A stretch of 64,000 nucleotides of DNA from a virus (taxonomy: Duplodnaviria > Caudoviricetes): the IMG/VR virus record IMGVR_UViG_3300042554_001750. One strand, 5' to 3'. Below are positions 33,095 through 62,691 of this stretch, in pieces. Position 1 is the first letter of the stretch. Every line of letters begins with the position of its first letter. A program made the position numbers and the translations under genes. Below the pieces are notes generated by a model. It was not told where the DNA came from and ran no database searches. It was given only the letters and a program-made list of their open reading frames with translations.

Positions 33095-33852
33095 TCTGTA
33101 ATGTTCTCCTCTGTTGATACATTACTTATCTTTGAATTATATTTTTCAACAAACCATCCTTTACATGAACCGCGGGCTGGTATCTTTTTATTTCTCATAA
33201 TCTTTTCCATAGTAGGCACACTTAAATTGTGTAGGTTACAAAAATTATAAAACCCCTCAGCTATATATTCAACTGAATCGGGTGAAATAAATCTATAGGT
33301 TTTTATATTGTTTTTGTTACCCTTCATTCTTTCTGAATGTTTCTTTTTGTTTTCGTCTGTGTGGTGCTTGTTATAAAACCCGTTCTTCTCACCTGTGACA
33401 CCTAACCCAATTTTCTTTTTTGTTTCTGCTGTCATGGGTTTTCTGCCATTTTCTAATAGAGTATTTTTATAACTTTCTATTCTTTTTTCTAAATGAGCAG
33501 GTGCTTGCTTTTTACCTTTATGAGAAGGGGGTCGTTTATCTAAACAAATGTTGGTCAATATACCGCCTTCATCAATATTTTCTCTCCCGTATTTTTTAAT
33601 ATAAGATGCCTCAATCTCATATGCGACATTTTCATCAATAATATTGTCAGTCAAAATACTTATAGGTATCTCGTATCCCTGTTCTCGTAAATATTGAATC
33701 TTAAAGAACTTATGACGATTATCAGTATTGTCAATAGTTTCCTTGAAGTGATCCAAATGTCTTTGATTTTCAGTTTTACCTTTACCTATATAAAAAGGAA
33801 GGTTGGTTCTATTATCTATTAGGGCGTATATGTAATACATAGCAGTCTCCAT
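33091..33852 (-). CDS. Free-standing GIY-YIG homing endonuclease
   Basis: YIYALID...FYIGKG; NUMOD3-like KKKIGL...GEKNGFYNKHHT..KKK; probable true start at the second Met (33840) behind GGAG. Confidence 0.8.
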   Translation of the reverse strand: METAMYYIYALIDNRTNLPFYIGKGKTENQRHLDHFKETIDNTDNRHKFFKIQYLREQGYEIPISILTDNIIDENVAYEIEASYIKKYGRENIDEGGILTNICLDKRPPSHKGKKQAPAHLEKRIESYKNTLLENGRKPMTAETKKKIGLGVTGEKNGFYNKHHTDENKKKHSERMKGNKNNIKTYRFISPDSVEYIAEGFYNFCNLHNLSVPTMEKIMRNKKIPARGSCKGWFVEKYNSKISNVSTEENITE

Positions 33853-36567: not shown

Positions 36568-39500
36568 TTAAAACTGTATAACTGGTGATGTGGGCGGTGT
36601 GAAGTTAGCTGTATAACGGGCTACACCGTTTGTTACTCGTAAGTCATCTATGTAGCCGTTGAATTCAGTGAAATAACTTTCTCCCCCGTACCCTACATAG
36701 AGTGGTTGAGTGGTAAATGTAATATTTGTGCTATTTGACCCAGTGCCGGATGCCACCCCGTTTATATACCAAGTCCAAGTGCTTCCGTTACGCACAAACG
36801 CAAGGTGAGTCCAGGTATTTGCAGTGATCGCACTAGTGGCTGTTGTGTAAATATCCGAACCGCCTGTCAATCCGTTATAATGAATACTGGGTGTCCCTGC
36901 ATTAAGGTGCATCACAAATTTGGGCACACCACCAGGTCCGCCACTTAGTGCATAAAAACCGCGTATTCCGGCAATGCTACTTGGGTATAACCAGGCTTCA
37001 AAAGTAAAACTTCCAGTACCTAAATTATTATTTACTGAGAATGGTGAGACCAAGTAATCGCCAGTGCCATCAAACGACATACTGCTATTACCGTATTTCT
37101 TGATTACTCCAGTGGTACTAGCATTGCCCAGTGTTTCGTAAGTGGCCATCATGGCACTGTCGTAAATGGCTGCACTGGTACCGTTAGCCAATATCAGGGT
37201 GTTTTGTATAGGCTGTAATGGTGCCACTGGTGGTGCAAAAGACGCAGTATAAAGAACTGTGCCTCTAATGTATCTTAGATTAGATATGTATCCAGTCCAA
37301 AACTTTGCAGGATTTAAAGTGCTACCAATATAAAAATTTTGAGTTGTTTGATCATAATAAGTTCCTGTAGCGGAACTGCCAGACGCAACGCCATTTATAT
37401 AGTAACTGATAGTATTATCAGACCTAGTTACAACAACGTGGTTCCATTGATTTATGCGTACAACAGAAGAACCCGAAGATGTTCCAACGGATGCTCCGTC
37501 TCCATTATTATCTGACTGTACAGTTCCATTGGTGTTAACCATGAGACTTAATCCTCTGGAATTGCCGTTAAATGTACCAAAAAACGCACTTTGGGCTGCT
37601 AGACTGGTTGGATATAACCAAACCTCTATAGTCCAATTACCATTGGTAAGATTAAGTACTGGTGATAAAACACTAACTAAGTAATCCCCAGTACCATCAA
37701 AATACATGCTGCCACCGTAATTTGCCACACTGTAAGTAGCATTGCTACCAGTGGTACTAGTCCAGCCAAATGGGTTGAATTGAGTGGGCTGGCTGTTACC
37801 AAAGACGGTTATGGCGAAGTTGTTGGTGCTATTATCAACGAATGTGGCGTTTTGGCATGTTAGTAGACTTGTACCTGACACTGCGGTTAGTGGTGCAGTT
37901 GGGGGCGTGAATGCTGCTGTGTAAACTGCTGTGCCTTTGACCAAACGCACATTGGATATGTATCCTGTACATACACCTGTTACACTTCCGTTGAAAAATT
38001 CAGCTCCTATATACGTTGTTCCCGAAAATGTAGCCGATGAAGTCCAAGTACCCAGTGAAGCTCCGTTTAAATAGAGAGTCACTGTTGTTCCTGCCCGAAC
38101 CACAGCAACATGTGACCAAGTTCCAACTGCAGGTAATGTTGCACTACTGATACGGTTAGCTCCATTGGAATACACTATTAGTGCAGATCCTGTACTACCT
38201 ATATAAACTTCAATCCCCGTAGAAGTAAAAGAATCTCCAAGAGTAAAGAAAAAGTTGTTGCCGCTTGCAGAACGGTAAACCCAAAACTCAATAGTAAAGT
38301 CTGCATTTAGTGTAGTGGCAGCATTATTTGGCGCTGTCAAATAATCCCCAGTGCCATCAAAGTAACCACTATAACTTGTGGGAGTAGTCAACACTGGGTT
38401 GAAGGGGTTGAAGCGTTGTACGCTAACATCACCGTTTCTTGTTATAGTAAAGTTGTTACCACTGTCATCTATGAATCTATTATCAGCACAAGTTAGTAGG
38501 CTGGTGTTAGCGATTGGTGTGAGAGGTGCTGTGGGTGGCGTGAACGCTGCGGTATATACTGCTGTACCTCTTACTATGCGTAAATTTGAAATATAACCAT
38601 TGTATCCAGTATTTTGCACCGAACCTAAATTTAAGGTAGAACCCGAGGGCCCCTGTGGGGTACCAGATTTTGATACTGAAAATGCTTGAACCCCGTTAAT
38701 GTAACCCTTAAGGGTGGAATTTGAATTAGTGTAAACCATGGCAACATGAGTCCAGGTGTTCAAAGCAACAGTAGAAGTACTGACTGCGTTAGTTACTCCA
38801 GCACCATTATAGTAATAAAAATATAAGTTACCCGATGAATTTGTACCAAAACTCCAGTATGTATCTGCACTAGTTGGTAAACCATATGCAACTTGTAATG
38901 GCAAACTATTAGTAGCACTCTGGGCGTTTACTCTATTGAAAATCCACATTTCAATAGTGTAATCTGTGTCCCACCACTGGACTGTAGATGCACTGTAAGG
39001 CATTGTTAAATAATCTCCAGTGCCATCAAAATAATTGCTCCAGCCACCACCATAGGGCGTAAAACTGCCCTGTGTTGTATTACCATTTCTAGTAATTAAA
39101 AAGTTACTGGCACTACTATCCAAAAACATATTATTGTTGTTGGGCTGATTGTTTTGTAGTGTTAGTAGTTGTGTGTTTGCAACTGCGGTTAATGGTGCTG
39201 TGGGCACAGTTATAGTGGTTTGCGTAGGGTTATATACTGCTGTGCCCTTTACAAATCTTACATTTGATATGTAGCCAGTAACACCCTGTGCGACCGTTTC
39301 ATTATTGCCTATGCGAAGCTCACCTTGAGCAAAACTTGTACTATTAGTAACAGTACCGCCGTCTGTGCGAGAACCATTGATCCAGAGTGACATAGTAGTT
39401 CCGCTTCTTGATGCTGCAATATGTACCCATTGATTCAATGGCATATTGATGTTAGAAGTCAATAAATCGGCAACACCATAACTTCTAATTACAACCTTAC

Positions 39501-41097
39501 TGCCAGTAACATAAACAATCAAGCCGTTGGTTGCGTTTATCAAATAGAAAACTGGATTGCTGGCCAGACTCGAGGTGTATGCCCAGAACTCAACCGTGAA
39601 ATCCGCCGGTGCTGCAAATGCTGTATTACTGGCCAGTGAAAGATAATCACCAGTGCCATCAAAATATCCCGAACCATAAGTGCTGTAGGCACTGAGAGGT
39701 ATGAATGGATCAAAACCACTTATTGATACACTACCGCTGACCGTTACGGTGAAATTATTTGTGCTATTGTCAATGAATCTATTGCTCTGGCATGTGAGCA
39801 ATTGTGTATTTGTGATGGTTGTAAGCGGAGTTGTACTTGGGGTAAAGTTTCCAGTGTATACAATTGTACCACGGACATATCTGAGATTGCTTATAAATCC
39901 CTTCCAGCCCAGTGTTGATATACCAAAGTTACCAAATTGACCAATAGTCAAGGGTTGATTTGATGCAAAGATTGAGGCTGCGTCCGTGGTTGACCCAGTG
40001 GCGACACCATTCACATAAAATGTATAGACACCAGCACCAGTACGTGTAAAGGCAAAATGATACCATTGTCCCGCTGTTACAGTAAATGAGTTTGAATATA
40101 TAAATGCGTCTGTGCTTCCATTGGTCGTGTAGTAAACTTGTAGTTTTCCGTTTGCCAAACTAAAGCCCCATGCCCGTTGCCCGGTGGCCACTTGTGACAC
40201 AATGTAATATTGATCACTTGTGTTATATGATTCTAGATAACAGAATGCTTCAACAGTTATGTCAGTATCCAAATTCCAGGCTGCATTGTCAGGAACAGTA
40301 AGGGCATTAGTAGATGTAAAATAATTACTGTAATATCCGGGCGTATATGGACCAAAGTTATTTGGTCTTGTATCACCAATCACACTAACAGCAAAATTGT
40401 TTGTGCTGGCATCACTAACGAATGTGCTGGATGGATTACTAGCACTCAACAATGTGGTTACATATTCAAAGTTAGCATCGCCAGCAGCGATAGTAATACT
40501 AAATGCTCGGGGACTTTCTTGCGCTTGGCCGTCTATGGCTTCAACAGTAAAATTGTAGGTGGTTTCGCTAGTAATACCAGTAACTGTGCCACTCAACAAC
40601 CCACCGCTAGATAAACTTAGTCCGGGAGGTAATGTACTACCCGCCTGTAATGCATAAGTCACCGGGGCATCTCCCGTAGCACTGAACTGTATGCTAATTG
40701 CACTATCCACTTGGCCACCAGTGAGTGTGCTGCCAGTGACCCATGTGGGATCACCACTGTATGTTAAACCGTTTACTAATATTGCTACGCCACCATTGCT
40801 CACAGTAACATACACAATATATGTTCCGGCTGCTTGTGCGGGTACTTGCACATTTAAGGTTGTGCTGTTTACAAAAGTAACACTGGTTGCTGTCACACTG
40901 CCTATGACCACCTGAGTTCCAGCAGTAAAGTTAGTTCCGGTAATTTTAATATATCCACCACTAGTGCTTACAGCAGTATCGTCTTTGACAACATAACCAC
41001 TGGTTGTAATCTGAACTTGCGTGATAGTGGGGGCAGTTGAACTCAGTGCTGTGATAGTCGCAGGGCTAAGGTTGGTAAGGTCAATATAGGTTGGCAT
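36568..41097 (-). CDS. Large fibre/adhesin: IPT/TIG + Ig-like (He_PIG) + six LamG/concanavalin-A modules
   Basis: ITGTNF...VTFVNSTTL; LPPGLSLSSGGLLSGT; six units with (Y/S)FDGTGDYL...W.H.A..R...LY.NG...GYISNLR. Confidence 0.8.
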   Translation of the reverse strand: MPTYIDLTNLSPATITALSSTAPTITQVQITTSGYVVKDDTAVSTSGGYIKITGTNFTAGTQVVIGSVTATSVTFVNSTTLNVQVPAQAAGTYIVYVTVSNGGVAILVNGLTYSGDPTWVTGSTLTGGQVDSAISIQFSATGDAPVTYALQAGSTLPPGLSLSSGGLLSGTVTGITSETTYNFTVEAIDGQAQESPRAFSITIAAGDANFEYVTTLLSASNPSSTFVSDASTNNFAVSVIGDTRPNNFGPYTPGYYSNYFTSTNALTVPDNAAWNLDTDITVEAFCYLESYNTSDQYYIVSQVATGQRAWGFSLANGKLQVYYTTNGSTDAFIYSNSFTVTAGQWYHFAFTRTGAGVYTFYVNGVATGSTTDAASIFASNQPLTIGQFGNFGISTLGWKGFISNLRYVRGTIVYTGNFTPSTTPLTTITNTQLLTCQSNRFIDNSTNNFTVTVSGSVSISGFDPFIPLSAYSTYGSGYFDGTGDYLSLASNTAFAAPADFTVEFWAYTSSLASNPVFYLINATNGLIVYVTGSKVVIRSYGVADLLTSNINMPLNQWVHIAASRSGTTMSLWINGSRTDGGTVTNSTSFAQGELRIGNNETVAQGVTGYISNVRFVKGTAVYNPTQTTITVPTAPLTAVANTQLLTLQNNQPNNNNMFLDSSASNFLITRNGNTTQGSFTPYGGGWSNYFDGTGDYLTMPYSASTVQWWDTDYTIEMWIFNRVNAQSATNSLPLQVAYGLPTSADTYWSFGTNSSGNLYFYYYNGAGVTNAVSTSTVALNTWTHVAMVYTNSNSTLKGYINGVQAFSVSKSGTPQGPSGSTLNLGSVQNTGYNGYISNLRIVRGTAVYTAAFTPPTAPLTPIANTSLLTCADNRFIDDSGNNFTITRNGDVSVQRFNPFNPVLTTPTSYSGYFDGTGDYLTAPNNAATTLNADFTIEFWVYRSASGNNFFFTLGDSFTSTGIEVYIGSTGSALIVYSNGANRISSATLPAVGTWSHVAVVRAGTTVTLYLNGASLGTWTSSATFSGTTYIGAEFFNGSVTGVCTGYISNVRLVKGTAVYTAAFTPPTAPLTAVSGTSLLTCQNATFVDNSTNNFAITVFGNSQPTQFNPFGWTSTTGSNATYSVANYGGSMYFDGTGDYLVSVLSPVLNLTNGNWTIEVWLYPTSLAAQSAFFGTFNGNSRGLSLMVNTNGTVQSDNNGDGASVGTSSGSSVVRINQWNHVVVTRSDNTISYYINGVASGSSATGTYYDQTTQNFYIGSTLNPAKFWTGYISNLRYIRGTVLYTASFAPPVAPLQPIQNTLILANGTSAAIYDSAMMATYETLGNASTTGVIKKYGNSSMSFDGTGDYLVSPFSVNNNLGTGSFTFEAWLYPSSIAGIRGFYALSGGPGGVPKFVMHLNAGTPSIHYNGLTGGSDIYTTATSAITANTWTHLAFVRNGSTWTWYINGVASGTGSNSTNITFTTQPLYVGYGGESYFTEFNGYIDDLRVTNGVARYTANFTPPTSPVIQF

Positions 41098-41142: not shown

Positions 41143-44100
41143 TTAGAATTGTATTACTGGGCTAGTGGGTGGTGTGAAGTTTGCAGTATAACGGGCCACG
41201 CCTCGGGTAATACGCACATCATCTAAATAACCATTTAAAGCTGCGTTATTAGTGGAACCGATAGTAAAGGGTATGTCTGTGCCTGATACCGGTGATCCTA
41301 CTATAGATGCAGTAGCTGATGAAACTCCGTTAATGTAAATAGCTAATGCTCCCCCATTGTTAACAAAAGCCAAATGATACCACTGTCCTGTTGCCAAAGC
41401 AGTGGTAGTTGTGAACGATTGTTGTGATCCCCTCCAGTAATAGAACCGTACTGTTCCGCCTGTGATAGGACCAAATGACCAATAATTACTAGAAGTAGTT
41501 GGATTCATGTTTCCGATTACTACGCTTTCGTTATTGCCGCCCTGGGTGAACGCATTCGCATAAATCCAATATTCTAAAGTAAAGTTACCTGAATACCAAT
41601 TCAAGAATGGTGCAAAATTATTTGACAAACTCAAATAATCTCCGGTGCCATCAAACGATAAACTGCTATTTCCGTACTTCTTGATTACCCCAGTAGTACT
41701 AGAATTGCCCAGTGTTTCGTATGTTGTGATCATGGCACTATCGTAGATGGCTGCACTGGTGCCGTTGACTTGTAAAACGGCGTTTGCATTGAATGACAAT
41801 GGTGCTACTGGTGGGGCGAAGTTACTGGTATACAGTGCTTGTCCTCTTAGTATACGAAGATTTGTTATGTATCCGTTAATGCTGCCACCGCTGGGCACAG
41901 AACCTACTCGCAATGCTCCTTGAGTTGTATAGTTTTGATCTGTAGTTGTGTTTGAACCAACTAGTACTCCGTTTTTGTACATAATGAATGTTGATCCACT
42001 TTTCATGATTGCCACATGAGTCCATTGATTTAACACGATGTTTGTTGGGTCTTGAACATTAATACTTCCAGCAGAAGTAAACCAGGATAATCTACTGTTA
42101 AAGAATGCCAATGCCCAACGGTTATTATACCCACCACTGGACGCAGCATCAGTCCAGGTTGTTGCCAAGGGAGCATAATTTGAAGGACTTGATGATAAGT
42201 AAAACCAGCATTCAATGGTAAAGTCGCCCGAAGATCCTAGGGTAAATGCTGGGTCGCTTGGCGTTAATAAAAAGTCACCAGTGCCATCAAAATACATGCT
42301 GCCACCGTAATTTGCGACACTGTAGGCTGCATTACTGCCAGTGGTACTAGTCCAGCCAAATGGGTTGAACTGAGTGGGCTGGCTGTTGCCGTTGGCAGTG
42401 ATCGTGAAGTTGTTGGTGCTGTTATCTACGAATGTGGCGTTTTGTAATGTCAATAAACTTGTATTGGCAATAGCAGTTAATGGTGTAGTACTTGGGGTAA
42501 AATTACTGGTATAGACTGCGGTGCCGTTGACCACTCTAAAGTTGCTAATGTATCCATTCACACTATGTGAAGCACTAAAGCCACTGCCACCTATTCTAAT
42601 TGTCCCAGTAGTAGTGCCAAAATTTGTTGAGTTGGTGGTGGTTGAACCCACCTGGGAGCCGTTCACGAATAATCTCAAAGATGTTCCTGATCTACTAACT
42701 GCTATGTGATTCCAGGCATTGGCGACTACCGCAGTAGTTGTAACTGCAACTATCGCGGCATTTCTTGCATCAAATTTTAATTGAGTTGCGCTCCAGTCGT
42801 AGCCAAATTCAGGAAAAGTTCCAGTATCATCCGGTCTTAGGAAAGCAGAGAAAGTGCCAGTGTTTGCCATGTAAGCCCAGAGTTCAATTGTAAAATCACT
42901 GGTGCCGAAGGCCAGCGAACTACCACCAGTATATGATAAACTGTCACCATTACCATCAAAGTAACCACTATAACTTGTGGGTGTGGTCAATGCGGGATTG
43001 AATGGATTAAAGCGTTGAATGCTTACATCACCGTTTCTTGTTATAGTAAAGTTGTTACCACTATCATCTACGAATCTGTTATCGGCACAAGTTAGCAATC
43101 TTGTATTAGCAATAGGTGTGAGCGGTGCAGTGGGTGGAGTAAAGGCAGTAGTGTAAACTGCTGTACCAATAACTATTCTATGATTTGAAATGTAGCCTGT
43201 AAAGTTAAATCCGCTTGGCATGCCCCCAATATAATTGGGTTGTGAAGTACTAAAAATTGAACTGGATCCCACATTAGTTGTGGTTCCTGCTACACCGTTT
43301 ATATATGGAGTAACTGTTGATCCATTTCTAACCAATGCTATATGATACCATGTATTTGCTGCAATATTTCCAAACGCAACACCAGAGGCAAGGTTCCAAG
43401 TAGTACCGTTGGAACTGAGATAATAATTTAATGTTCCGTTAGATGCAGTATAGATCGCCCAGTTAATTGTTGAGCCATCATATCCACAAAATGGTTGTTG
43501 TCCTGAAGCCACAGAATTAAAGTAAACCCATGCTTCAATGGTAAAATCACTATTGCTCAAGTATAAAGAACTACTGAAGGAAATACTCAAATAGTCACCA
43601 GTACCATCAAAATAATTACTCCAGCCACCACCATAGGGACTAAAACTTCCCTGTGTGGTGTTGCCGTTGCGGGTGATCAAGAAGTTATTGGTACTACTAT
43701 CCAAGAACATTGAATTGTTATTGGGCTGGTTGTTTTGTAGTGTTAGTAATTGAGTGTTTGCAACTGCGGTTAGTGGGGCAGCGGGTGGTGTAAATGAACT
43801 TGTATAAACTGCGGTACCTTTAACCAATCTGAAATCAGCCATGTAACCTGTATATAGTGTTTGACCGCTTTCAAATCCAATGTTTAGTGACCCTACAAAA
43901 TTAGTTGAATTTGAAGCTGTGCCCACGCTGACACCATTGACATATAATGTTATGGTATTACTGTTGCGTACTACTGCCACATGGTTCCAGGCATTGATGA
44001 CCACCGCATTATTTGCTGTAATCAGCAGGCTACCGCCATCAAACAAAGTAAAGCTATTTGTTGTATAAAGGAATAACCGTAAATTCGTGCCAACTGATCC

Positions 44101-45744
44101 GTACGAAAACAGATTTATATATCCTCCTGGGGCTGCGGCTATGTTGTACCAAAACTCTATAGTAAAGTTTCCTGAACCAGGTTGCAGATTTGCCTGGCCG
44201 GCCGGTAATGACAAATAATCCCCAGTGCCATCAAAATATCCTGAACCATAAGTGCTGTAAGCACTGACTGGTGCAAATGGATCAAACCCTGATACCAGTG
44301 TATCACCGTTGCGAGTAATAGTGAAGTTATTTGTGCTTGCGTCAATGAATCTGTTGCTTTGACATGTTAGCAGGGCCGTTTGTGTGCCTGTAATTACAGA
44401 GATATTTGTGCCTGAAGATTGTGTTGCAGCCAATGGTGAAGTTGGAGGTATAAACGATCCTGTGTAGACAGCGACACCTTTGACAATACGAAGGTTTGAT
44501 ATGTATCCGTTTACTTGCCTTGACACCAATGCGTTAGCGATATATAACAAACTAGCAGTCCCTGATGTTTGATTCCAGGAATTTGCTGTTGTTGATCTTT
44601 CTACACCATTTAAGTAAATTTTTGTAGTGCCTGATGATCTAACCAGTGCAACGTGATTCCAAGCATTCAATGAAATTAATGCGGCCGCTGTTTCTGTAAC
44701 AGGAGAATTAGGACTGTAACTTCCTGCATAAAATGTAATTGCCCCTGCATTCGTGAATCCAAATGAAATAGCATCAGTTGAGTATGTTCCTGCACCTTCT
44801 CTTACATCAACTACATTGTTAAATTCCTGAGGATAAGATACTAAATAAGCCCAAAACTCAATTGTGCAATTACTAGTTCCCAAAGCTAGAGTAGATCCAT
44901 ACGGAACTGTTAAAGAATCTCCGCTTGTATCAAAATATGCACTATAATATCCCGGTGTGTAGGGGCCAAAACTATTGGGTCGTGTATCGCCAAACACACT
45001 AACAGCAAAATTGTTTGTACTGGCATCAGTGACGAATGTACTACTGGGGTTAGCAGCACTCAACAATGTAGTAACATACTCAAAAAATTGATCACTTGCT
45101 GTAATCGTAATACTAAATGTTCTGGGACTTTCCTGAGCCTGAGCATCAATGGCTTCTATAGTAAAGTTGTAAGTGGTTTCAACTGTGATTCCAGTTACAG
45201 TGCCACTCAACAACCCACCACTGGTTAAAGTTAGTCCTGCGGGCAAACTACTGCCCGCTTGAAGTGCATATGTAACTGGAGCATCACCAGTAGCACTCAA
45301 TTGTATGCTAATTGCACTATCTACTTGCCCACTGGTTAATGTGCTACCAGTAACCCATGCGGGATCACCACTATAAGTCAGTCCATTAACCATGATAGCC
45401 ACGCTGCCAGTGTTTATGGTCACATAAACCACATATGTGCCAGCTGCCAGGGCTGGCACTTGAACATTCAGAGTGGTGCTATTTACAAAACCCACGCTAG
45501 TTGCAGGTGTACTACCAATTACAACTTGCGAACCAGCAGTAAAGTTAGTCCCAGTAATCTTGATATAACCACCACTGGTACTAACGGCTGTGTCATCTTT
45601 GACTACATACCCACTAGTGGTAATTTGTATTTGTGTGATTGTGGGAACTGCACTACCTTGCAAAGCATCAATTGTGCTCTGAGCAAGGTTAGTTGTCAGA
45701 ATCGTGTTACTTTGAATATTGGTGCTGGCTATTCTGGTAGTCAT
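41143..45744 (-). CDS. Large fibre/adhesin paralog: IPT/TIG + Ig-like + six LamG modules
   Basis: Same architecture as 36568..41097 and identical C-terminus VARYTANFTPPTSPVIQF. Confidence 0.8.
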   Translation of the reverse strand: MTTRIASTNIQSNTILTTNLAQSTIDALQGSAVPTITQIQITTSGYVVKDDTAVSTSGGYIKITGTNFTAGSQVVIGSTPATSVGFVNSTTLNVQVPALAAGTYVVYVTINTGSVAIMVNGLTYSGDPAWVTGSTLTSGQVDSAISIQLSATGDAPVTYALQAGSSLPAGLTLTSGGLLSGTVTGITVETTYNFTIEAIDAQAQESPRTFSITITASDQFFEYVTTLLSAANPSSTFVTDASTNNFAVSVFGDTRPNSFGPYTPGYYSAYFDTSGDSLTVPYGSTLALGTSNCTIEFWAYLVSYPQEFNNVVDVREGAGTYSTDAISFGFTNAGAITFYAGSYSPNSPVTETAAALISLNAWNHVALVRSSGTTKIYLNGVERSTTANSWNQTSGTASLLYIANALVSRQVNGYISNLRIVKGVAVYTGSFIPPTSPLAATQSSGTNISVITGTQTALLTCQSNRFIDASTNNFTITRNGDTLVSGFDPFAPVSAYSTYGSGYFDGTGDYLSLPAGQANLQPGSGNFTIEFWYNIAAAPGGYINLFSYGSVGTNLRLFLYTTNSFTLFDGGSLLITANNAVVINAWNHVAVVRNSNTITLYVNGVSVGTASNSTNFVGSLNIGFESGQTLYTGYMADFRLVKGTAVYTSSFTPPAAPLTAVANTQLLTLQNNQPNNNSMFLDSSTNNFLITRNGNTTQGSFSPYGGGWSNYFDGTGDYLSISFSSSLYLSNSDFTIEAWVYFNSVASGQQPFCGYDGSTINWAIYTASNGTLNYYLSSNGTTWNLASGVAFGNIAANTWYHIALVRNGSTVTPYINGVAGTTTNVGSSSIFSTSQPNYIGGMPSGFNFTGYISNHRIVIGTAVYTTAFTPPTAPLTPIANTRLLTCADNRFVDDSGNNFTITRNGDVSIQRFNPFNPALTTPTSYSGYFDGNGDSLSYTGGSSLAFGTSDFTIELWAYMANTGTFSAFLRPDDTGTFPEFGYDWSATQLKFDARNAAIVAVTTTAVVANAWNHIAVSRSGTSLRLFVNGSQVGSTTTNSTNFGTTTGTIRIGGSGFSASHSVNGYISNFRVVNGTAVYTSNFTPSTTPLTAIANTSLLTLQNATFVDNSTNNFTITANGNSQPTQFNPFGWTSTTGSNAAYSVANYGGSMYFDGTGDFLLTPSDPAFTLGSSGDFTIECWFYLSSSPSNYAPLATTWTDAASSGGYNNRWALAFFNSRLSWFTSAGSINVQDPTNIVLNQWTHVAIMKSGSTFIMYKNGVLVGSNTTTDQNYTTQGALRVGSVPSGGSINGYITNLRILRGQALYTSNFAPPVAPLSFNANAVLQVNGTSAAIYDSAMITTYETLGNSSTTGVIKKYGNSSLSFDGTGDYLSLSNNFAPFLNWYSGNFTLEYWIYANAFTQGGNNESVVIGNMNPTTSSNYWSFGPITGGTVRFYYWRGSQQSFTTTTALATGQWYHLAFVNNGGALAIYINGVSSATASIVGSPVSGTDIPFTIGSTNNAALNGYLDDVRITRGVARYTANFTPPTSPVIQF

Positions 45745-45747
45745 TCA

Positions 45748-47772
45748 TCATACTCTTTTTAGTAAAGCCTTTAGTTCTTGTAATTCATCTGGATCGTTTT
45801 CTGTGACTACAGCTTGTGCATCAGTATTAATGAAATTTTCATTAGCACCAACTAACTTGCCCATTGCACCTTTTGGTCCTACCTTTTCGTATGGGCCTAA
45901 TTGACCTACACGCTTTTGGTTGGCGTCTAAATCCTCTTCCACATCAAGTTTACTTTTAATGTCACGCTTCATTGCATCACTATCTTGTTTGTGAAGTTTA
46001 CCTAATTTAGTTATTCTATTAGGTGACATGTTTTTACGCATTTGTCTAAACTCTAAGTCATCGTGACCCATTGAATGACCAGGTCTTGGGAAATGCATAC
46101 TAGGACCGTTAACAATGCTATCGGCAGTGCTGTCACCAAACTCTGCACGAATTTGTGCAATAATATCGTCAGAGTCCTCGTCACCCATATACTCAGGATC
46201 AGTTGCATCACTATATGCATCAATTAGGTCTTTAAGTCTTGCTTTTTTTTCTGAATCTAACCCTTCCGCCACACTTACTTCATCTAACTTGTCATACTTG
46301 GCACGGATCTTTGCCATTTTTTCTTTGCTAGCACCATCTCTACCTGCTTGACGCAATGCGTCCATACCTTCTTTACCATACTTCTTGTTACCAAGATATG
46401 CTTGTAGACCGCTTTCTTCAACTTCTTGTTCATCAATTTGATCTAAGCGTTTTGTCAATGCGGCTAAACCTTCTTTACCGCTGATGTTACGCTCTTTAGC
46501 TTTTTCTAAATCTTTTGTAGTTGTCTTCCAGTCAGGATCGCCACTTTGCTTACGCATAAATGCAGGCATTTGAGTTTTCTTGTGTGCAACTTCTGCATCG
46601 TCAGCTTCGTCTAAATCAAATGCATCTAATCTAGATTTTTCAGTTGCCTGATTGTGTGCTAATGTTTCTGCACCTGCAGCTTCATCTAATGGATTATCTT
46701 CTGCACCACCTTCGCCTGCGTCACCTGCTGTATAAACATCAGTTTCTTCGCTGGCTTCACCACCGTCGCCGCCTTCTAGCAAGTTATCTGCCCATTCTGC
46801 CAACTCACTAACTTCCTTCATCTCACCTAAGTTCTTACTTAGTTTGCTAAGAATTGGCATCACACTTTCAATTCTTGGATCTAGTGTTTCTTGTACGAAT
46901 AATTCGTTTAAATTAGATTCATCATTTTCAGTCTCCATTAATGTAGGAGTCCAGCTTTCAAAATATGCGTTGTATCCACGACTGCCGCGCATCTTGCTCA
47001 ATGACTCACGCAAACTTTGATAGTGACCAAGACCTGCTTCAACTAATTTCTGAGCACTTTCATTGAACTGATTGCCGCGAACAGCACGGACAAAGCCTGC
47101 CATCTTACTATATTCTTCACAAAGGCTCTTGATATGATTCCAACGCTCATCGTTTGGTATTCCGCCTTCTGCCAAATGTCTAGCATAAACTTGTGCGATT
47201 CCTGGACGAGTAGTTGGGGCTAATATTCTTTCACCTTGACTATTCTCTAAAAAGATTTTAGCAATATTTCTAAATCTTTGTTCGCCTTCTTGTATTTGGC
47301 GTGTGTGCTGTAGTACAATTTTAACAGTAGGAATTGCATCATTGTAGCTAGCACTTTTACCCATTGGGTAGTATCCCTCAGAAATTTTTTCTTTTTGCTT
47401 CATATATTCCCTCTTAGACATATCATCAGATAAGCGGTCTTGGTTAATTGTTTGAAATCCTAATTGACGGCGTTGCGCCCATTTTTTCAATTGTATTAAA
47501 AAATCCATGAAACTTTTAGGATTCATGTCATCTTCTTTTAATGTGTTTAGTAACTTGTTATCGTAATATACTTTTAATTGTTGATTACCATCAACTGTCA
47601 CCCATGCAGGTCCGATTTCTTTACCATCTTGTTTGTAGGTAAATTTAATCACATCTGCATCATCACTAACTGGAATCGTCTCTCCCTTACTATTTTTTGG
47701 AACAGGATCAAATCCTTGAACTTTCAGTAGGTCGTATAGACGGTTGTTTAAAGAATTATTGCTAATTGGCAT
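45748..47772 (-). CDS. Large late protein, probable internal head protein, 674 aa
   Basis: Late promoter; acidic modular C-terminal half rich in L/V-x-E motifs. Confidence 0.55.
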   Translation of the reverse strand: MPISNNSLNNRLYDLLKVQGFDPVPKNSKGETIPVSDDADVIKFTYKQDGKEIGPAWVTVDGNQQLKVYYDNKLLNTLKEDDMNPKSFMDFLIQLKKWAQRRQLGFQTINQDRLSDDMSKREYMKQKEKISEGYYPMGKSASYNDAIPTVKIVLQHTRQIQEGEQRFRNIAKIFLENSQGERILAPTTRPGIAQVYARHLAEGGIPNDERWNHIKSLCEEYSKMAGFVRAVRGNQFNESAQKLVEAGLGHYQSLRESLSKMRGSRGYNAYFESWTPTLMETENDESNLNELFVQETLDPRIESVMPILSKLSKNLGEMKEVSELAEWADNLLEGGDGGEASEETDVYTAGDAGEGGAEDNPLDEAAGAETLAHNQATEKSRLDAFDLDEADDAEVAHKKTQMPAFMRKQSGDPDWKTTTKDLEKAKERNISGKEGLAALTKRLDQIDEQEVEESGLQAYLGNKKYGKEGMDALRQAGRDGASKEKMAKIRAKYDKLDEVSVAEGLDSEKKARLKDLIDAYSDATDPEYMGDEDSDDIIAQIRAEFGDSTADSIVNGPSMHFPRPGHSMGHDDLEFRQMRKNMSPNRITKLGKLHKQDSDAMKRDIKSKLDVEEDLDANQKRVGQLGPYEKVGPKGAMGKLVGANENFINTDAQAVVTENDPDELQELKALLKRV

Positions 47773-47785
47773 AGTATTGTATTTA

Positions 47786-48844
47786 TCAACTAATTACGGC
47801 AAAGAAGGGCAGAGGAGCAATGATTTCATCATGATCCTTGATTTGTGCTTCTAAATTATAATGATAATCACTCAATTGCTGTAAAATTCTGACTACAAGA
47901 AGTGCGGCCATGACCAAATCGTCGGTATCCCCGATTTTAGCTGCATAGCTGCCACCATTAGCTATAAAGCTTTTAAGTTCACTAATCAATGATTTACTAT
48001 GAACCTTCATTTTTTTGCTTTCTAGCAATGTTTTAAATTTAGCACATGCAGCTAGTTTTACCTTTTGTGTAGTATTGAAACCTTTGCGCTTTTTACCGGG
48101 CTCGGACAAAAAGATGCCAGGAATGTTACTTTCACCGTATTCATTCAATGAAATTAGTGCGGCTTCACCTATACTATTATTTTCTATACTGTAATAAAGA
48201 CTGTTAGGTTCATTAGTGCATTCTACAATATATTTGTTGATATCTGCTATAAGTTTGATTTGACTAGGAATGTCAGTTTTATTATGCTTCCATTCTCCTA
48301 TTTGCGTAGTAGTATTTGCTTCAAATATTTGTATAGCTGATGGATCACCGCCGGTGCCCAAGCTTGGATCTAGCCCTACAACATATATATTACCTTTCTC
48401 GGGTTTCTTATACCATCGGATTTGACCCATTCTATGAATAGGCTCTACACCTTCTAATTGAATTAAAGTATTAGGATTGATTAATGTTTCATCTGCAATA
48501 ATAAATTCGCAATTGGAACATAGTATCCCGTTGGCATAGAATCTTCTATTAGTTCCAACATTCACAAGGTCATATACTATTTCAATAGCATTTTCCTTTA
48601 CTGATAATACCTTTTGCAAACCAGTTACTGTTCTGACCTGAATTCCTGGTGTAAGCTGTTCTGCTTTTAATTTTGTAAAAGAATCTGTAAATACCTCATG
48701 ATCAGGAGTCAGAGTTAATTGAGTATTTTCTAAATTTACTATTATAGTATGCATAGCTCCTTTGTTAACAAGACCTTCAAATGTCTGCCAACCGGTATCC
48801 GTCAACACTTCTAAACCTAATTTATTTTTTAGTAATTCTACCAT
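47786..48844 (-). CDS. terL: Terminase large subunit, C-terminal part (IntC + nuclease domain)
   Basis: After intein end CSN the sequence continues CEFIIADETLI...VVGLDPSLGTGGD...DTDDLVMA (RNase H-like gp17 nuclease). Confidence 0.92.
   Translation of the reverse strand: MVELLKNKLGLEVLTDTGWQTFEGLVNKGAMHTIIVNLENTQLTLTPDHEVFTDSFTKLKAEQLTPGIQVRTVTGLQKVLSVKENAIEIVYDLVNVGTNRRFYANGILCSNCEFIIADETLINPNTLIQLEGVEPIHRMGQIRWYKKPEKGNIYVVGLDPSLGTGGDPSAIQIFEANTTTQIGEWKHNKTDIPSQIKLIADINKYIVECTNEPNSLYYSIENNSIGEAALISLNEYGESNIPGIFLSEPGKKRKGFNTTQKVKLAACAKFKTLLESKKMKVHSKSLISELKSFIANGGSYAAKIGDTDDLVMAALLVVRILQQLSDYHYNLEAQIKDHDEIIAPLPFFAVIS
48512..48844 (-). mobile_element. Split intein C-fragment (IntC, 111 aa)
   Basis: Block B LTLTPDH, block F VYDLVNV..RRFYANG, terminal ILCSN followed by Cys+1. 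Confidence 0.9.
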
Positions 48845-49496
48845 ATACGAACCCCTCAGGTTGAGATCCTTCCCTAAATTGACGATTTTCTACTCCATTA
48901 TTAAACCACTTCAATCCTTTTCTTGATTGGTTGGTTATCAATCGTCCTGCGTTAAATCCAGCCGGTATAGTATCCCCATAAAATTCATTGACCCCATTGT
49001 TATACCATTTTTTACCCAGGTTTATGCCTACTCTGCCCTTTTGAGCAACGCTTATATTCTTACACCTAATAGGATCTTTTAAATAATTATAGTAGTTTGG
49101 GTTGAATCTTGCTTTGCGCTGAGATTCTCTCTCGTCATCTGACCATAATGTTCCTTTATTACGGCCACCGTGACCAGGTAATCTTAACCCCTTATTCCAC
49201 GGAATACTATTTGTAGTTCCTTCTCCGCCGTCAGTTCTATTTCTTAATATACCCGTACCTAAATCTTTTCTACCGTATAACTGTATCATTTGGCATTCTA
49301 ATGAAATAGCTTCTACTTCCGTAAGTCCCTGTTCTAATATAACAATGTTTTTATATAAAGGTCGTTTAATATTTTCATGTAATTGCCAGGCACGTTTATT
49401 TTTGCCTTTGCCAATGTAATAAGGTGTTCCATTTTCCCTCAGATATGCATAAACATAATATCCGTCAGGAATTTTGTGCGGTGAATAAATAGTCAT
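48822..49496 (-). CDS. Free-standing GIY-YIG homing endonuclease between terL halves
   Basis: YVYAYLRENGTPYYIGKGK, LRNRTDGGEG, WNKG and two KW(Y/F)NNG repeats. Confidence 0.85.
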   Translation of the reverse strand: MTIYSPHKIPDGYYVYAYLRENGTPYYIGKGKNKRAWQLHENIKRPLYKNIVILEQGLTEVEAISLECQMIQLYGRKDLGTGILRNRTDGGEGTTNSIPWNKGLRLPGHGGRNKGTLWSDDERESQRKARFNPNYYNYLKDPIRCKNISVAQKGRVGINLGKKWYNNGVNEFYGDTIPAGFNAGRLITNQSRKGLKWFNNGVENRQFREGSQPEGFVYGRITKK

Positions 49497-49564
49497 GCTG
49501 ATTGCTCCTCTATAGCGTTAGAGTAGTTGGGGATTGCCGTCCCGCGAACTACACTTTTATTTAT
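49497..49564 (-). promoter_or_regulatory. Late promoter, two hairpins and GAGGAG RBS for the endonuclease
   Basis: ATAAATA (49558-49564); stems GTAGTT..GGGA/TCCC..AACTAC and CTCTA/TAGAG, the latter overlapping the SD. Confidence 0.65.
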
Positions 49565-50480
49565 CACCATTTAGCATTTTCTCCAATTCTGCCATGGTAG
49601 CAGTAATAATATTACCGGATGAATCTCTAAGAGTCATTCTGGTACTTGGTGCAAAACAACCAATTTCTCGGTTAAATCTATCTTCACCCAACTGGGCTTT
49701 CATTTCATCAGCCCATTTCTGATCACGACCGGGCTGTTCATTCCAATAAGCCCGATATGATTTAAAGCCGTTAATTCCTAGTTCAGTTTCATTTCCATAC
49801 TCATCTAGTGTTTTGTTGGCACCTTTCCAAATCAATGCAAATTGATCTTCATCACTGTTTGGAGTACTTGTAATAATTGCTTTACCACCAGTAGATAAGG
49901 TAGGCGTGATAGAAGTCCAAAATAATTCAGCAATGGAAGGTCTAACGAATGCAAACTCGTCTAAGTATAGCAATGAAATAGACATACCACGACCTGTATT
50001 TTCTGTCGTGGTTGCTGACACGATTCTAGAACCATTCTCAAAATCGAGGGACCCTTTATTATAAGTAGTCACGCCTGCCTTAATATGATCGGGACAGTTT
50101 TCATATGCATAGCGAATACGCTGCATAATTTCCTGTGCGCCGGTGTACTTATGTGCCGCAATAAGAATTGTACTGTCTGGTACAAACATAGCATACCACA
50201 ATAGATATCCAGCTGCACTTGTTGACTTACCACTCTGTCGTGGCATCAATGAAATAGAATATCTATAATTGTGATATGTGTGAATTAACTTTTTTTGATA
50301 ATCCCATGGGTGATACAACATACTGCCCTTAGTAGGATGTTGAATATAAAAGAAGTTATCCATAAAATATAGATAACCGGTATCAGGATCACAACACTTG
50401 ATAAAGTCCTGTAGTTCTTTATCCGTCTTAAAGACAGTTTTGGTGTATGGATCCTTAACTAAGGAAGGTGCGTTACTCAT
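49557..50480 (-). CDS. terL: Terminase large subunit, N-terminal part (ATPase domain + IntN)
   Basis: Walker A PRQSGKST, Walker B LYLDEFAF, ITSTPN; ends REIG-CFAPST... Confidence 0.93.
   Translation of the reverse strand: MSNAPSLVKDPYTKTVFKTDKELQDFIKCCDPDTGYLYFMDNFFYIQHPTKGSMLYHPWDYQKKLIHTYHNYRYSISLMPRQSGKSTSAAGYLLWYAMFVPDSTILIAAHKYTGAQEIMQRIRYAYENCPDHIKAGVTTYNKGSLDFENGSRIVSATTTENTGRGMSISLLYLDEFAFVRPSIAELFWTSITPTLSTGGKAIITSTPNSDEDQFALIWKGANKTLDEYGNETELGINGFKSYRAYWNEQPGRDQKWADEMKAQLGEDRFNREIGCFAPSTRMTLRDSSGNIITATMAELEKMLNGDK
49560..49658 (-). mobile_element. Split intein N-fragment (IntN, 33 aa)
   Basis: CFAPSTRMTLRDSSGNIITATMAELEKMLNGDK matches intein block A (CF..xT.V....G....xEL). Confidence 0.88.
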
Positions 50481-50508
50481 AGTGAGTATTTATTTGGGCA
50501 TTAACCTA

Positions 50509-52350
50509 TTAAGTTAATTCTTGCCAACCTAGTTCAGCCAACACATCAGCGTTGTTTGCGGTAGCGGCAATCGCTAATGTAACAACATCACTGACGCCGG
50601 CTAAAGTTCTACCTAACTGAAACTGAAAATAATCCACAGCACTGAGTTGTGCAAGTTCTCTGCTGGCAGCGTAGCCTGACTGAATTTCTATTCCACCTGA
50701 TATAGCAGTAGCCGCTAAGTCAATGTCTACCGTGCCAGTGGGGCTAGTAGAAGCAAAAGTAGCACCAGTCAGTGTTGGATTCTGTAACAATACCCAACGA
50801 TAGTAGTTTACACTAGGACTCAGTACGTCAATCTGTCGGGGAAATACTATACTGTCCAATCTGCTGGAGTTTAATTTAATGCTAACAATAGGATAATAAG
50901 TGTTGGCGTTGGACAGACGTTTTGCTGTAGTACCTGTACCAGCGCTTTGAGTAGTACCAAAACTATTATAACCACCTTCACTAATAACAGTGCTACAAAT
51001 TTGTGTCATTTGACTAGCACCGGCAGTTGCACCCGTGTTAGTAATCTCATAACGAATCGGCAATGTAGCCGTAGTCATATACACTTTGGTATTGCCAGTT
51101 TGATTAGCGTGTTGGAATGTGTGGCATATAATATACTGCCCGTTAATGATAAATCCCACACGTACATTACCTACACCCAACCACTCAACATCAGCGTAAT
51201 AAATCTGTGTGCGATTTGGATATAATGTAATACCTGATGGATTGTTAGCACCACCTGCACCGTTCAATCTATCACCATTCCAAGCATCTTGTCTTACTCT
51301 TTCTTCTACACCAGTAGATGCTGAACGAATGACCATATAGTTATATGTGCCATCGTTTTCAAAGAATACACCATCATTAGCACCAAACAATCCCACACGC
51401 TGGCGTAGATTTGTTTTTGGTGTATTCATACAGAATGTAAGCAATGTTAGTTGGCTCTTACCTGGCTGATAAGGAAATACTTTCATTGTTTCTCTTATCA
51501 CACTATCGTTCACAGATGACCCCACATTGAGTTGAAAACTACTTTGGTTAGCTACATAAACAACATTTGCTATACCATTGATAGCACTACTAAACTGTTG
51601 ATGGTCGTAATAACGACTGTTGGTATCAAATAGTGTATAGGGATTGCTTACACGCAAACGACCAAATGCGTCACTTGTTGCTCCGCTAAATCCTGAAATA
51701 ATAACATTGGCATTACTGTCTAATGTTGCGTTGACATTACCTGACACTACCCAAGGACTAGTACCTTGCTGCACTGTTACATTACCACCAGTGATGTTAG
51801 CGTTGACATTGGGCATCGTGCCTATATTGACATTACCTGTAACACCAACATTACCACTTACTGGTAGAGTATTACCTGTTAGAACAACATTACCTAAACT
51901 TGTTACACCTACATTTCCTGACACACTGGCATTAACATTAGGCATAGTGCCGATATTAACATTACCTGTCACACCGACATTGCCGTCAATAGTAAGACTA
52001 CCGCCACCATCTACTACCGTAACATTACCTGTGATACCCGCAATATTTCCTGTAATACTACTAACTGCTACAGTACCTGTTACTATGGCATTGACATTAC
52101 CACCTGATATAGTAACATTGCTGTTGCCGTCTATACTGACCGGCATCCAAGGAACTGTTAATTCACCACTTGTTCCAATTTGTGAAACATGTGAGTCAAC
52201 ATTCCCAGGAATGTTGACGTTTCCATCAATAACAATATTGCCAGTAAACCCGGTTCTAACATACACATTACCTGAGGCTTCATCTAAGGCTAGTGCCTGG
52301 TTGATGTTTCGTAAGTACCAGGGACTTACATTGCTGGGATTTGGTTCCAT
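50509..52350 (-). CDS. Virion structural/fibre protein with GNV repeats and C-terminal lectin-like domain
   Basis: GNV/GNI triplet repeats followed by DAFGRLRVSNPYTLFD...YQPGKSQ; late promoter. Confidence 0.7.
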   Translation of the reverse strand: MEPNPSNVSPWYLRNINQALALDEASGNVYVRTGFTGNIVIDGNVNIPGNVDSHVSQIGTSGELTVPWMPVSIDGNSNVTISGGNVNAIVTGTVAVSSITGNIAGITGNVTVVDGGGSLTIDGNVGVTGNVNIGTMPNVNASVSGNVGVTSLGNVVLTGNTLPVSGNVGVTGNVNIGTMPNVNANITGGNVTVQQGTSPWVVSGNVNATLDSNANVIISGFSGATSDAFGRLRVSNPYTLFDTNSRYYDHQQFSSAINGIANVVYVANQSSFQLNVGSSVNDSVIRETMKVFPYQPGKSQLTLLTFCMNTPKTNLRQRVGLFGANDGVFFENDGTYNYMVIRSASTGVEERVRQDAWNGDRLNGAGGANNPSGITLYPNRTQIYYADVEWLGVGNVRVGFIINGQYIICHTFQHANQTGNTKVYMTTATLPIRYEITNTGATAGASQMTQICSTVISEGGYNSFGTTQSAGTGTTAKRLSNANTYYPIVSIKLNSSRLDSIVFPRQIDVLSPSVNYYRWVLLQNPTLTGATFASTSPTGTVDIDLAATAISGGIEIQSGYAASRELAQLSAVDYFQFQLGRTLAGVSDVVTLAIAATANNADVLAELGWQELT

Positions 52351-61198: not shown

Positions 61199-61427
61199 AT
61201 AACATCTCCACTTTACTTATAGCATCGTTTAATGTTGGATCACTGTCAGCCATGAACACGGCTTCTTTTAAATTTACCCAGCGTATTTGCAACTCTTGTT
61301 CTTTTTGCCATACAGGATCTACACTATGTAGATGGCGAACGGTCTCGCCAGGTTTTTTAGCGTAGACCGTCTTGCCCCCGTCGGGGCTTTCATAGATGAT
61401 AATTTCCTCAGTTGACTTTATCATCAT
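61173..61427 (-). CDS. Hypothetical protein, about 84 aa
   Basis: Probable start MMIKSTEEIIIYESPDGGKTVY at 61427 (track start 61544 overlaps the vWA gene). Confidence 0.6.
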   Translation of the reverse strand: MMIKSTEEIIIYESPDGGKTVYAKKPGETVRHLHSVDPVWQKEQELQIRWVNLKEAVFMADSDPTLNDAISKVEMLYALKKKEC

Positions 61428-62691
61428 AGAGGGCAAACGTCCCGAACGGGGGATTAGGATCGGGGTCTCCGTGAATGATCCATGTAGTGTCGCAATAGTC
61501 AGGGTCGCCCCAACTACCGCAAGGATATCCATCAGTGAACACAATCAATCGCTTGGGTTCAATTGCATTTTCCTTGAGATATCGGAAGATAGCATCAAAG
61601 TCAGTGCCACCACCACCCATTGGTTCATAGCCATCAATCGTATCCATATTCTCACTGGTGAAGTCAGCAGGATTATAGATTTCCGTATCAAAACAGAATA
61701 CATGAACCTTGTAACCATCAAACGCTTCCATCATGCCCGCAATCTCACCCAAGAAAGCCTGAGCCTGCTTGTTAGAAATAGAACCTGACATATCAATGGC
61801 TACTGTAACATCAATTTCTTCACCGGGGGTCATACCGGGCATGACTGCATCCATATGCCAACCACGGCGTGAAGGACGCATCCAACTAAAGTCAGTACGG
61901 ATAGCACTGGTCAAGTTAGTCTGAATCAGTTCACGCCACGGCATGACAGGATTAGTATGTTGCTTGATCAGGCGTTCAACACCTTTGGGCAAACTACCTG
62001 CTTCGGCTGATTGTGCGGCGTTAAGAATTGCTTGCTTGACCTCTTGACGGACACGTTCACGTTCCTCAGGACTCATCTTGGGACGCTTACCCTTACCGTC
62101 CTTCTCATCTTCACCGTCGCCGTCGTCACTCTCATTGTCCATATGGTCGTCAATCATTTGATCAACCAAATCATCAATGGAAATCTTTTGCGCATTCTTC
62201 ATGAGGTCATCATAGATTTCCTCAGCAGGCTTGCCATCATACTTAGATTCATACAAGCAAGGCACAGTAGTAATGAACTGGCCAACCTTATGGCGCTTCA
62301 AGTCAGCATTAACAGCATAGTCATCGGCAATGTTCCAGATTTGCGGATCACGTGTACCACGGCGATCCATGTGATCATAAACCACATGCAACACTTCATG
62401 ACCTACAAGAAACTCAACCTCTTTGGGCTTGAGCATCATAATGAAACGGCTATTGTAATAAAACTTCAGACCGTCAGTAGCCGCTGTACCACACCACTCA
62501 TCGGCGTTGGTCAATTGAAGGCGTGTTGCAAGGTTACCGAAAAATGAGTGCCGAAGCAACAAACCGATTCGGGCAGTAACCAGCCGCTCACGGGCTTGTG
62601 CATCAATTTTAGGATCAGTGGGGCCGATCAGATTTTCAAACTTTTTGCTACTCTTACGCTTCTTTTTAGCAGGGGCAATTACATCACTCAT
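61408..62691 (-). CDS. DUF2201-like metallopeptidase + vWA domain protein
   Basis: HEVLH (HExxH), MIDDH, vWA MIDAS IDMSGS...GGGGT...FTDG. Confidence 0.88.
   Translation of the reverse strand: MSDVIAPAKKKRKSSKKFENLIGPTDPKIDAQARERLVTARIGLLLRHSFFGNLATRLQLTNADEWCGTAATDGLKFYYNSRFIMMLKPKEVEFLVGHEVLHVVYDHMDRRGTRDPQIWNIADDYAVNADLKRHKVGQFITTVPCLYESKYDGKPAEEIYDDLMKNAQKISIDDLVDQMIDDHMDNESDDGDGEDEKDGKGKRPKMSPEERERVRQEVKQAILNAAQSAEAGSLPKGVERLIKQHTNPVMPWRELIQTNLTSAIRTDFSWMRPSRRGWHMDAVMPGMTPGEEIDVTVAIDMSGSISNKQAQAFLGEIAGMMEAFDGYKVHVFCFDTEIYNPADFTSENMDTIDGYEPMGGGGTDFDAIFRYLKENAIEPKRLIVFTDGYPCGSWGDPDYCDTTWIIHGDPDPNPPFGTFALYDDKVN

Follow-up and report, generated by a model that had tools for sequence, protein, structure and literature searches.

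The fractured terminase locus

The 64,000-nucleotide (nt) stretch of Caudoviricetes DNA analysed here (IMG/VR record IMGVR_UViG_3300042554_001750; hereafter, the window) carries three consecutive minus-strand open reading frames (ORFs) that together constitute a fractured gene for the large terminase subunit (terL). The first ORF, P0001 (terL-N), ends in the N-terminal part of an intein (IntN), the third, P0003 (terL-C), begins with the C-terminal part (IntC), and P0002, the gene between them, encodes a putative homing endonuclease. A previous sequence-only reading, which proposed that the TerL halves are joined by protein trans-splicing, quoted ORFs, coordinates and peptides that all proved exact upon re-examination of the sequence. 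The features of the locus are as follows:

49557-50480, minus strand: P0001 (terL-N), 307 amino acids (aa)
49659-50480, minus strand: terL N-extein, residues 1-274 of P0001, TerL ATPase domain ending in ...FNREIG (Pfam PF03237, Terminase_6N, E 2e-15; phrog_36964, E 7e-63)
49557-49658, minus strand: IntN, 33 aa (CFAPSTRMTLRDSSGNIITATMAELEKMLNGDK) and the TAA stop; block A, two strands and the first helix
49497-49556, minus strand: leader of the endonuclease gene, 60 nt
48822-49496, minus strand: P0002, free-standing putative homing endonuclease gene, 224 aa (phrog_314, 'homing endonuclease', E 1.5e-6), with an N-terminal GIY-YIG nuclease domain (residues ~13-95) and a C-terminal half presumed to bind DNA (residues ~101-224)
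47786-48844, minus strand: P0003 (terL-C), 352 aa
48512-48844, minus strand: IntC, 111 aa; block B (T46 to H49), block F (V90-Y-D92 to R101-F102) and block G (ILCSN)
47786-48511, minus strand: terL C-extein, residues 112-352 of P0003 from Cys+1 (CEFIIADETL), RNaseH-like nuclease domain, and the stop (Pfam PF17289, Terminase_6C, E 5e-6)

IntN reads CFAPSTRMTL...NGDK up to the stop, and its Cys1 (codon 49656-49658; Cys275 of P0001) directly follows REIG. The IntC motifs of P0003 are LTPDH, VYDLVNVGTNRRFYANG (VYDLVNV..RRFYANG) and ILCSN, and the ATG of P0003 overlaps the 3' end of P0002 by 23 nt. Fractured genes have been defined as halves that lie in order on the same strand and carry the parts of a split intein, with a free-standing endonuclease ORF between them (Dassa et al., 2009; PMC2677866); P0001, P0002 and P0003 show exactly this organization.

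Empty sites and precise insertion

A search with P0003 retrieved over 100 proteins of 351-361 aa that are 59-100% identical to it over the full length and hence share the IntC-nuclease fusion. The search also yielded an intein-less TerL, P0114, the 515 aa of which equal the sum of the two exteins (274 + 241) and run through the insertion site as ...FNREIG-CEFIIADETL... (DRFNREIGCEFIIADETL; longer stretch, AQLGEDRFNREIGCEFIIADETLVNPNTL). The N-extein is 94.5% identical to residues 1-275 of P0114 and the C-extein is 92.1% identical to residues 275-515. We further compared 80 related IMG/VR viral loci (denoted by L numbers), picked by similarity to P0003; 24 contain the intein, whereas in the other 56 the site is empty, with N-extein residue 274 abutting C-extein residue 1. 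Relative to these intein-less homologues, the insertion is in frame and exact, and the seamless REIG-CEF junction predicted from the window alone is thus found in nature. Moreover, the same site is filled by a contiguous mini-intein in three loci (L016, L027 and L071) and in protein P0120, all with a short linker leading from IntN to IntC, no stop and no inserted gene, which indicates that the two halves represent one intein.

These comparisons bear on the possibility that insertion of the endonuclease gene inactivated terL, which would now be decaying while a second terminase, from some other part of the 370-kb genome, carries out packaging. Endonuclease genes have indeed decayed in relatives of this locus, being broken in L004 and mostly deleted in L009, but the damage affects neither the intein nor the exteins. 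Both exteins are intact here, with 92-94% identity to the uninterrupted alleles, and more than 100 homologues keep the split layout with open frames. No second terL was found within the 64-kb window, although this is the portion of a genome of up to 370 kb that the search covered, which leaves this scenario some room. Overall, we consider it highly improbable that terL is decaying.

Conservation of the splicing residues

The identification of the N-terminal region of P0003 as an IntC is borne out by its matches to known split and mini-inteins in a PDB sequence search: VidaL (6vgv; E 1.4e-6, residues 6-109), the consensus TerL intein CatC (6dsl_B; E 7.5e-6, residues 7-113, including the CE start of the extein), Spl DnaX (E 1.7e-4) and, more weakly, NrdJ-1 and gp41-1. 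The intein_Nterm model of NCBIfam (TIGR01445) also gave a weak match to IntC residues 28-53, the region of block B. The corresponding PDB search with IntN, which is too short a peptide to be informative, returned a spurious repeat match to an adhesin and nothing else.

In an alignment of 103 IntC homologues (59-100% identity), T46, H49, D92, N95, R101, F102, A104, N111 and Cys+1 are conserved without exception, and Cys occupies position 1 of IntN in all 22 relatives in which IntN is readable. The locus accordingly possesses the characteristic residues of class 1 inteins, namely, Cys1, the TxxH of block B, the Asp of block F (F:4), the terminal Asn of block G and Cys+1.

Predicted docking of IntN and IntC

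We modelled the complex of P0003 residues 1-130 (IntC plus 19 extein residues) with P0001 residues 258-307, alongside three controls. The docking score was 0.71, compared to 0.00 for the best of the three controls; of the reference sets, 51 of 78 solved complexes attain this mark, as do 2 of 108 mismatched pairs. Three model runs have at least 80% of their contacts in common, with a predicted local distance difference test score (pLDDT) of at least 66 for the partner. In the model, IntC is contacted by P0001 residues 273-287 (the strand region) and 292-305 (the helix region): IntN residues 282-286 pair with IntC residues 11-14, residue 276, next to Cys1, touches blocks B (44-46) and F (90-92), and the IntN helix (296-303) packs against IntC residue 25. 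These predicted contacts fit the HINT fold.

The halves might also associate without splicing, in which case the intein parts would serve as a non-covalent dimerization module of a two-chain TerL, similar to the fragmented NrdA of phage Aeh1. Phage enzymes in fragments that assemble through interaction domains of mobile-element origin have been described (PMC3045599), the docking model shows binding rather than chemistry, and the penultimate His is absent from this intein. Nevertheless, a docking module would not need the residues for all four splicing steps, and these are invariant in the 103 diverged homologues. In addition, the contiguous alleles (L016, L027 and L071) must splice in cis to yield a working TerL, and splicing is established for their relatives AceL-TerL, GOS-TerL and Cat (PMC11766414). 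Association without splicing therefore appears improbable, and splicing of this particular allele is very likely, judging from the conservation of the residues and the predicted docking.

The endonuclease gene and its leader

The fold of P0002 could be named only from a structure model and Foldseek, given that Pfam, NCBIfam and PDB sequence searches gave nothing usable (no usable NCBIfam match and no PDB match at all). The 13 best PDB matches of the AlphaFold2 model (pLDDT 79) are all GIY-YIG domains, including the UvrC N-domain and PD-T4-3, with probabilities of 0.69-0.99, 11 of the 13 being at or above 0.89. Homologues of P0002 number in the thousands, some carrying NUMOD3 (PF07460). An alignment of 38 homologues shows no variation at Y14 and Y16 (YVY), K30, G31 or E67, and at least 90% conservation at Y26, Y27 and G29 (YYIG), R35 and N86; among these positions are the counterparts of the catalytic Tyr-Tyr-Arg-Glu-Asn set known from GIY-YIG enzymes. 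The fold and the catalytic residues together thus lend moderate support to P0002 being a GIY-YIG enzyme, in agreement with the initial reading of a GIY-YIG gene between the terL halves.

The window contains additional nuclease genes. A second free-standing GIY-YIG-like gene (33091-33852, minus strand; 27% identical to P0002, E 8e-5) is located directly downstream of a UvsX-like recombinase gene (33888-34943), and a 427-aa protein (61408-62691, minus strand) matches PHROG 1314, 'HNH endonuclease', with E 8e-111.

The 60-nt leader of P0002 includes a GAGGAG ribosome-binding site and can be folded into a hairpin with an outer stem, GTAGTT...AACTAC, and a small second stem. In the single sequence, this hairpin is not significant compared to shuffled sequences (z-score -1.18). 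Across six loci, the leader is more conserved than the coding sequence around it, the outer stem is invariant and two inner pairs show compensatory changes, which, in as few as six sequences, amounts to modest support for the hairpin. The fractured loci described by Dassa et al. (2009; PMC2677866) likewise show hairpins in the leaders of their endonuclease genes. The IntN stop overlaps a TGATAAATA box (49552-49560), which is kept at the DNA level in L008 even though it lies in a different reading frame there, suggesting a late-promoter-like signal for the endonuclease gene rather than coding constraint.

Occurrence in independent metagenomes

The 2.7-kb stretch is present, at no less than 60% of the sampled words, in 20 sequencing runs from 17 studies, and the runs carrying the locus are lake or freshwater metagenomes. 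Using runs not flagged as a possible source of the record, we checked the junctions on separate contigs, each with 0-1 differences. One contig (48307-49554) spans the IntC start and the entire endonuclease gene, another (49525-49725) the IntN stop and Cys1, and a third (48868-49961) the 5' end of the endonuclease gene, the leader, IntN and the end of the N-extein. Some contig joints skip ~1270-1310 nt around the cassette, but their flanks are shorter than 30 nt and the gap does not match the exact 1147-nt cassette; these joints may derive from co-occurring intein-less relatives and were not counted as evidence.

GIY-YIG genes often reside in group I introns of phages, so that the interruption might conceivably be removed from the RNA, or else be an assembly artefact. 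RNA-level splicing through a group I intron was rejected by an Rfam scan of 47000-51000, in which neither strand gave a match at E<=1; furthermore, the endonuclease gene is flanked by intein blocks A, B, F and G that are in frame with the exteins. An artefact is excluded by the independent contigs over each junction, by the occurrence of the locus in 17 studies, and by diverged relatives with the same layout, in which the stop, the leader and the endonuclease gene recur. The chance that either explanation holds seems to us negligible.

Assessment of trans-splicing

In our judgement, this locus is best explained as a fractured terL whose products are trans-spliced by an atypically split intein, the gene between the halves being that of a free-standing homing endonuclease, and we hold this explanation with considerable confidence. 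It is supported by the empty sites, the conserved splicing residues, the docking model and the failure to find an intron, so that the principal proposal of the sequence-only reading is upheld. Several points weigh against it. The penultimate residue of IntC (G:6) is Ser110 instead of His, as in 98% of the 103 homologues, and the position of the block F His (F:13), residue 100, is occupied by Arg. Part of the docking result may stem from the predictor having memorized the known structures of Cat and VidaL complexes; because such complexes have been solved, passing the docking mark shows likeness to a known assembly rather than binding of this copy. None of the RNA runs among those searched carries the terL locus. 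As regards the endonuclease, the Pfam search with P0002 yielded no GIY-YIG match (PF01541), and the Foldseek E-values are weak (0.05-0.5; for the UvrC N-domain, a probability of 0.99 comes with E 0.055). The coverage of the search for a second terL, stated above, belongs to the same list.

The lack of both histidines had led to the proposal that the chemistry of this intein may be unusual. Ser110 and Arg100 are indeed present and His is missing from both positions, but this is not exceptional, and the claim is weakened by three considerations: Ser110 is typical of the clade, with its CSN ending; splicing without the penultimate His is documented; and the block F stretch of CatC aligned with that of this IntC, YDLLNVGEDNLYY, also contains no His. 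Residue 100 is Lys in 64%, His in 17% and Arg in 11% of the 103 homologues (92% in total for the three). Ser-Asn or Ala-Asn is also the ending of the fast cyanobacterial DnaE split inteins. Both histidines, at the penultimate position and in block F, act as assisting residues and, though common, are not universal; positions F:4 and F:13 are described as less conserved, and the same review cites work on splicing in the absence of the penultimate His (its refs 74, 87) as well as a catalytic model of Ssp DnaE that dispenses with it (PMC4031507).

Relationship to known split inteins

The locus exhibits the traits of atypically split TerL inteins, i.e. a terminase host, a short IntN with block A only, and blocks B, F and G in IntC. 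Dassa et al. (2009) described a fractured locus from Lake Gatun (GOS) that is similar to the gp17 terminase of Myoviridae and has an unusual split (PMC2677866); it was subsequently characterized under the name GOS-TerL. Judging from its description, GOS-TerL has in common with the present locus the gp17-like myovirus terminase, the endonuclease gene between the halves and the freshwater source, but it has Ser1, a 37-aa IntN and a 115-aa IntC (122 aa in the 2009 paper), as opposed to Cys1, 33 aa and 111 aa here (PMC11766414; PMC2677866). AceL-TerL comprises an IntN of 25 aa with Cys1 and an IntC of 104 aa (PMC11766414), and the Cat consensus an IntN of 30 aa and an IntC of 104 aa. In all three, the split is described as lying behind helix 1, at the S2 site, and all three find use in semisynthesis.

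With AceL-TerL and Cat (PDB 6dsl), the present intein shares the TerL host, the S2 split, the short IntN (25-30 aa in those two), Cys1 and Cys+1. The C-extein of the Cat construct also starts with CE, a comparison limited to these first two residues. Otherwise, Cat is a distant relative of this IntC (29 bits, E 7.5e-6, ~31% identity by hand count on the alignment): Cat and AceL end in ...SHN (SHA in the crystallized chain), whereas this clade ends in CSN, and block B reads SDNH in Cat and TPDH here. VidaL (6vgv), the best PDB match to IntC, is naturally atypically split and Cys-dependent, but it is split earlier (S1, 16-aa IntN; PMC13014065) and has a His in block F, unlike the IntC described here.

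The same layout is found in cultured Straboviridae, namely, Yersinia phage MHG19 and Providencia phage PSTRCR_127, in which terL-N is followed by a gene of ~236 aa and a terL-C starting with IntC, although annotation of the pieces in the records goes no further than 'terminase large subunit' or 'hypothetical protein'. In MHG19, terL-N ends in ...QEH followed by a 37-aa IntN (CISRDS...) and then the 236-aa gene; IntC ends in ...GILTHN, with the penultimate His present, and CAEF opens the C-extein at the corresponding boundary between the ATPase and nuclease domains. The IntC is 31% identical to that of the window (E 8e-13).

Thus, the sequence-only reading was right in that the split intein is real and was correctly read, but its presentation as new has to be qualified, because a gp17-like terminase with this very arrangement had already been reported in 2009 (PMC2677866), and members of the family have served as tools since 2014. 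This intein joins the known family of the fractured terminase, AceL-TerL and GOS-TerL, within which it arguably represents a new subfamily.

Cassette types and module exchange among relatives

The 24 intein-containing loci differ in what separates IntN from IntC. An intact GIY-YIG homologue occupies the split in four (L001, L005, L007 and L008), besides the two with the decayed GIY-YIG genes mentioned above, and the locus ends at a contig edge in one (L006). In eight loci, an HNH-like gene is present instead. Its L003 representative (L003:2023-2838) matches the Pfam HNH family with E 3.7e-4, just under the curated cut-off, and the C-terminal 122 residues of the product are 55% identical to P0002 residues 103-224 (E 4e-43; window 48822-49196). 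The nuclease domains of the two proteins are unrelated, which, together with the shared C-terminal half, suggests a swap of nuclease modules on one presumed DNA-binding module. In six further loci (L002:2995-4005, L010:2968-4011, L011, L012, L054 and L056), IntN and IntC are separated by an unrelated gene of ~340 aa matching DUF7487 (Pfam, E 3e-30). Although a PDB sequence search with the L002 protein gave no meaningful match, this gene probably represents another family of homing endonucleases. The natural IntN variants are 31-34 aa in length.

In a FastTree phylogeny of the concatenated exteins, which was midpoint-rooted and comprises loci chosen by similarity to P0003, alleles with the intein are interspersed with empty ones, and closely related backbones carry endonucleases of different types. 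Such a pattern would be expected from repeated homing, turnover of the endonuclease and loss, and it fits, along with the distribution of the cassettes, the gene-breaking model of Dassa et al. (2009). The relatives might accordingly represent stages of a life cycle: the empty site, the contiguous mini-intein, its splitting by any of three unrelated nuclease genes, the decay of the endonuclease and, possibly, re-fusion.

Additional inteins reside at other TerL sites in some relatives. IntC-like starts precede CDEFAFV, in the Walker B region, in P0111, L024 (2748-3038) and L071 (1398-1718), and STSAAG, in the P-loop, in P0121, which makes TerL a multi-site intein hotspot in this phage group, as reported for mycobacteriophages (PMC5050341). 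The terminase coding sequence of Campylobacter phage CP30A (L082:2495-3823) and those of ~40 other Campylobacter phage records also start in an IntC-like fashion, with 30% identity to the IntC described here. In CP30A, no terL N-half is annotated within 2.5 kb upstream, where the neighbouring gene encodes a neck protein; the terL halves of these phages may be encoded far apart, and their intein is probably inserted at a different site, given that the C-part is longer.

Genomic setting

The neighbours of terL in the window encode virion proteins, a gp32-like single-stranded DNA-binding protein and a UvsX-like recombinase, and the P0003 protein is also on record on a 370-kb contig, which together point to a T4-like jumbo phage. 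Two adjacent giant paralogous virion proteins of 1509 and 1533 aa are encoded at 36568-41097 and 41143-45744 (minus strand); each matches the same repeat-containing PHROGs (baseplate wedge or virion structural protein) in up to six stretches.

A model of the fractured terminase

In the scenario that we favour, a mini-intein would have occupied the boundary between the TerL ATPase and nuclease domains and would have been split after its first helix, at the S2 site, by a free-standing GIY-YIG gene. TerL-N-IntN (307 aa) and IntC-TerL-C (352 aa) would then be made separately from the three same-strand ORFs, with the 33-aa IntN docking into the nearly complete IntC and thereby completing the HINT fold. 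Class 1 splicing would proceed through a thioester at Cys1, transfer to Cys+1, cyclization of Asn111 and an S-to-N shift, and the product would be a TerL of 515 aa joined as ...REIG-CEF.... Presumably, the endonuclease cleaves the intein-less terL of co-infecting relatives, such that the whole intein and endonuclease cassette would be copied in, and its expression is probably restrained by the conserved 5' hairpin and the late-promoter-like box. What the analysis demonstrates is the anatomy of the genes, the exact empty-site alleles, the conservation of residues, the spread of the locus in the population and the docking model. Splicing and the activity, target and regulation of the enzyme are presumed, homing on the basis of the position of the gene and the patchy distribution of the cassette.

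A broader proposal, which we put forward tentatively and with somewhat more doubt than confidence, is that the freshwater jumbo-phage clade constitutes a distinct subfamily of atypically split TerL inteins, possibly orthogonal to AceL-TerL, Cat and VidaL, in which the population records the full life cycle at one non-canonical split point, with GIY-YIG and HNH-like nucleases swapped on a shared DNA-binding module. Orthogonality is suggested by the ~31% identity to Cat, the penultimate Ser and the Lys or Arg in place of the usual block F His. If this proposal is correct, it is the landing place of the endonuclease, and not the structure of the intein, that dictates natural split sites.

For protein ligation, split inteins whose N-fragment can be made synthetically are valued tools, of which few natural examples have been characterized; the present allele, along with over 100 natural variants of it, provides a sequence-diverse set in which orthogonality, speed and extein tolerance can be explored. 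The related loci also form a natural series in support of the gene-breaking model for the origin of split inteins, including the exchange of nuclease domains on a conserved DNA-binding half. The locus extends a known family and leaves the current understanding unchanged. For the phages themselves, which form an abundant group in lakes, the sequences imply that protein trans-splicing would be required to make an essential packaging enzyme.

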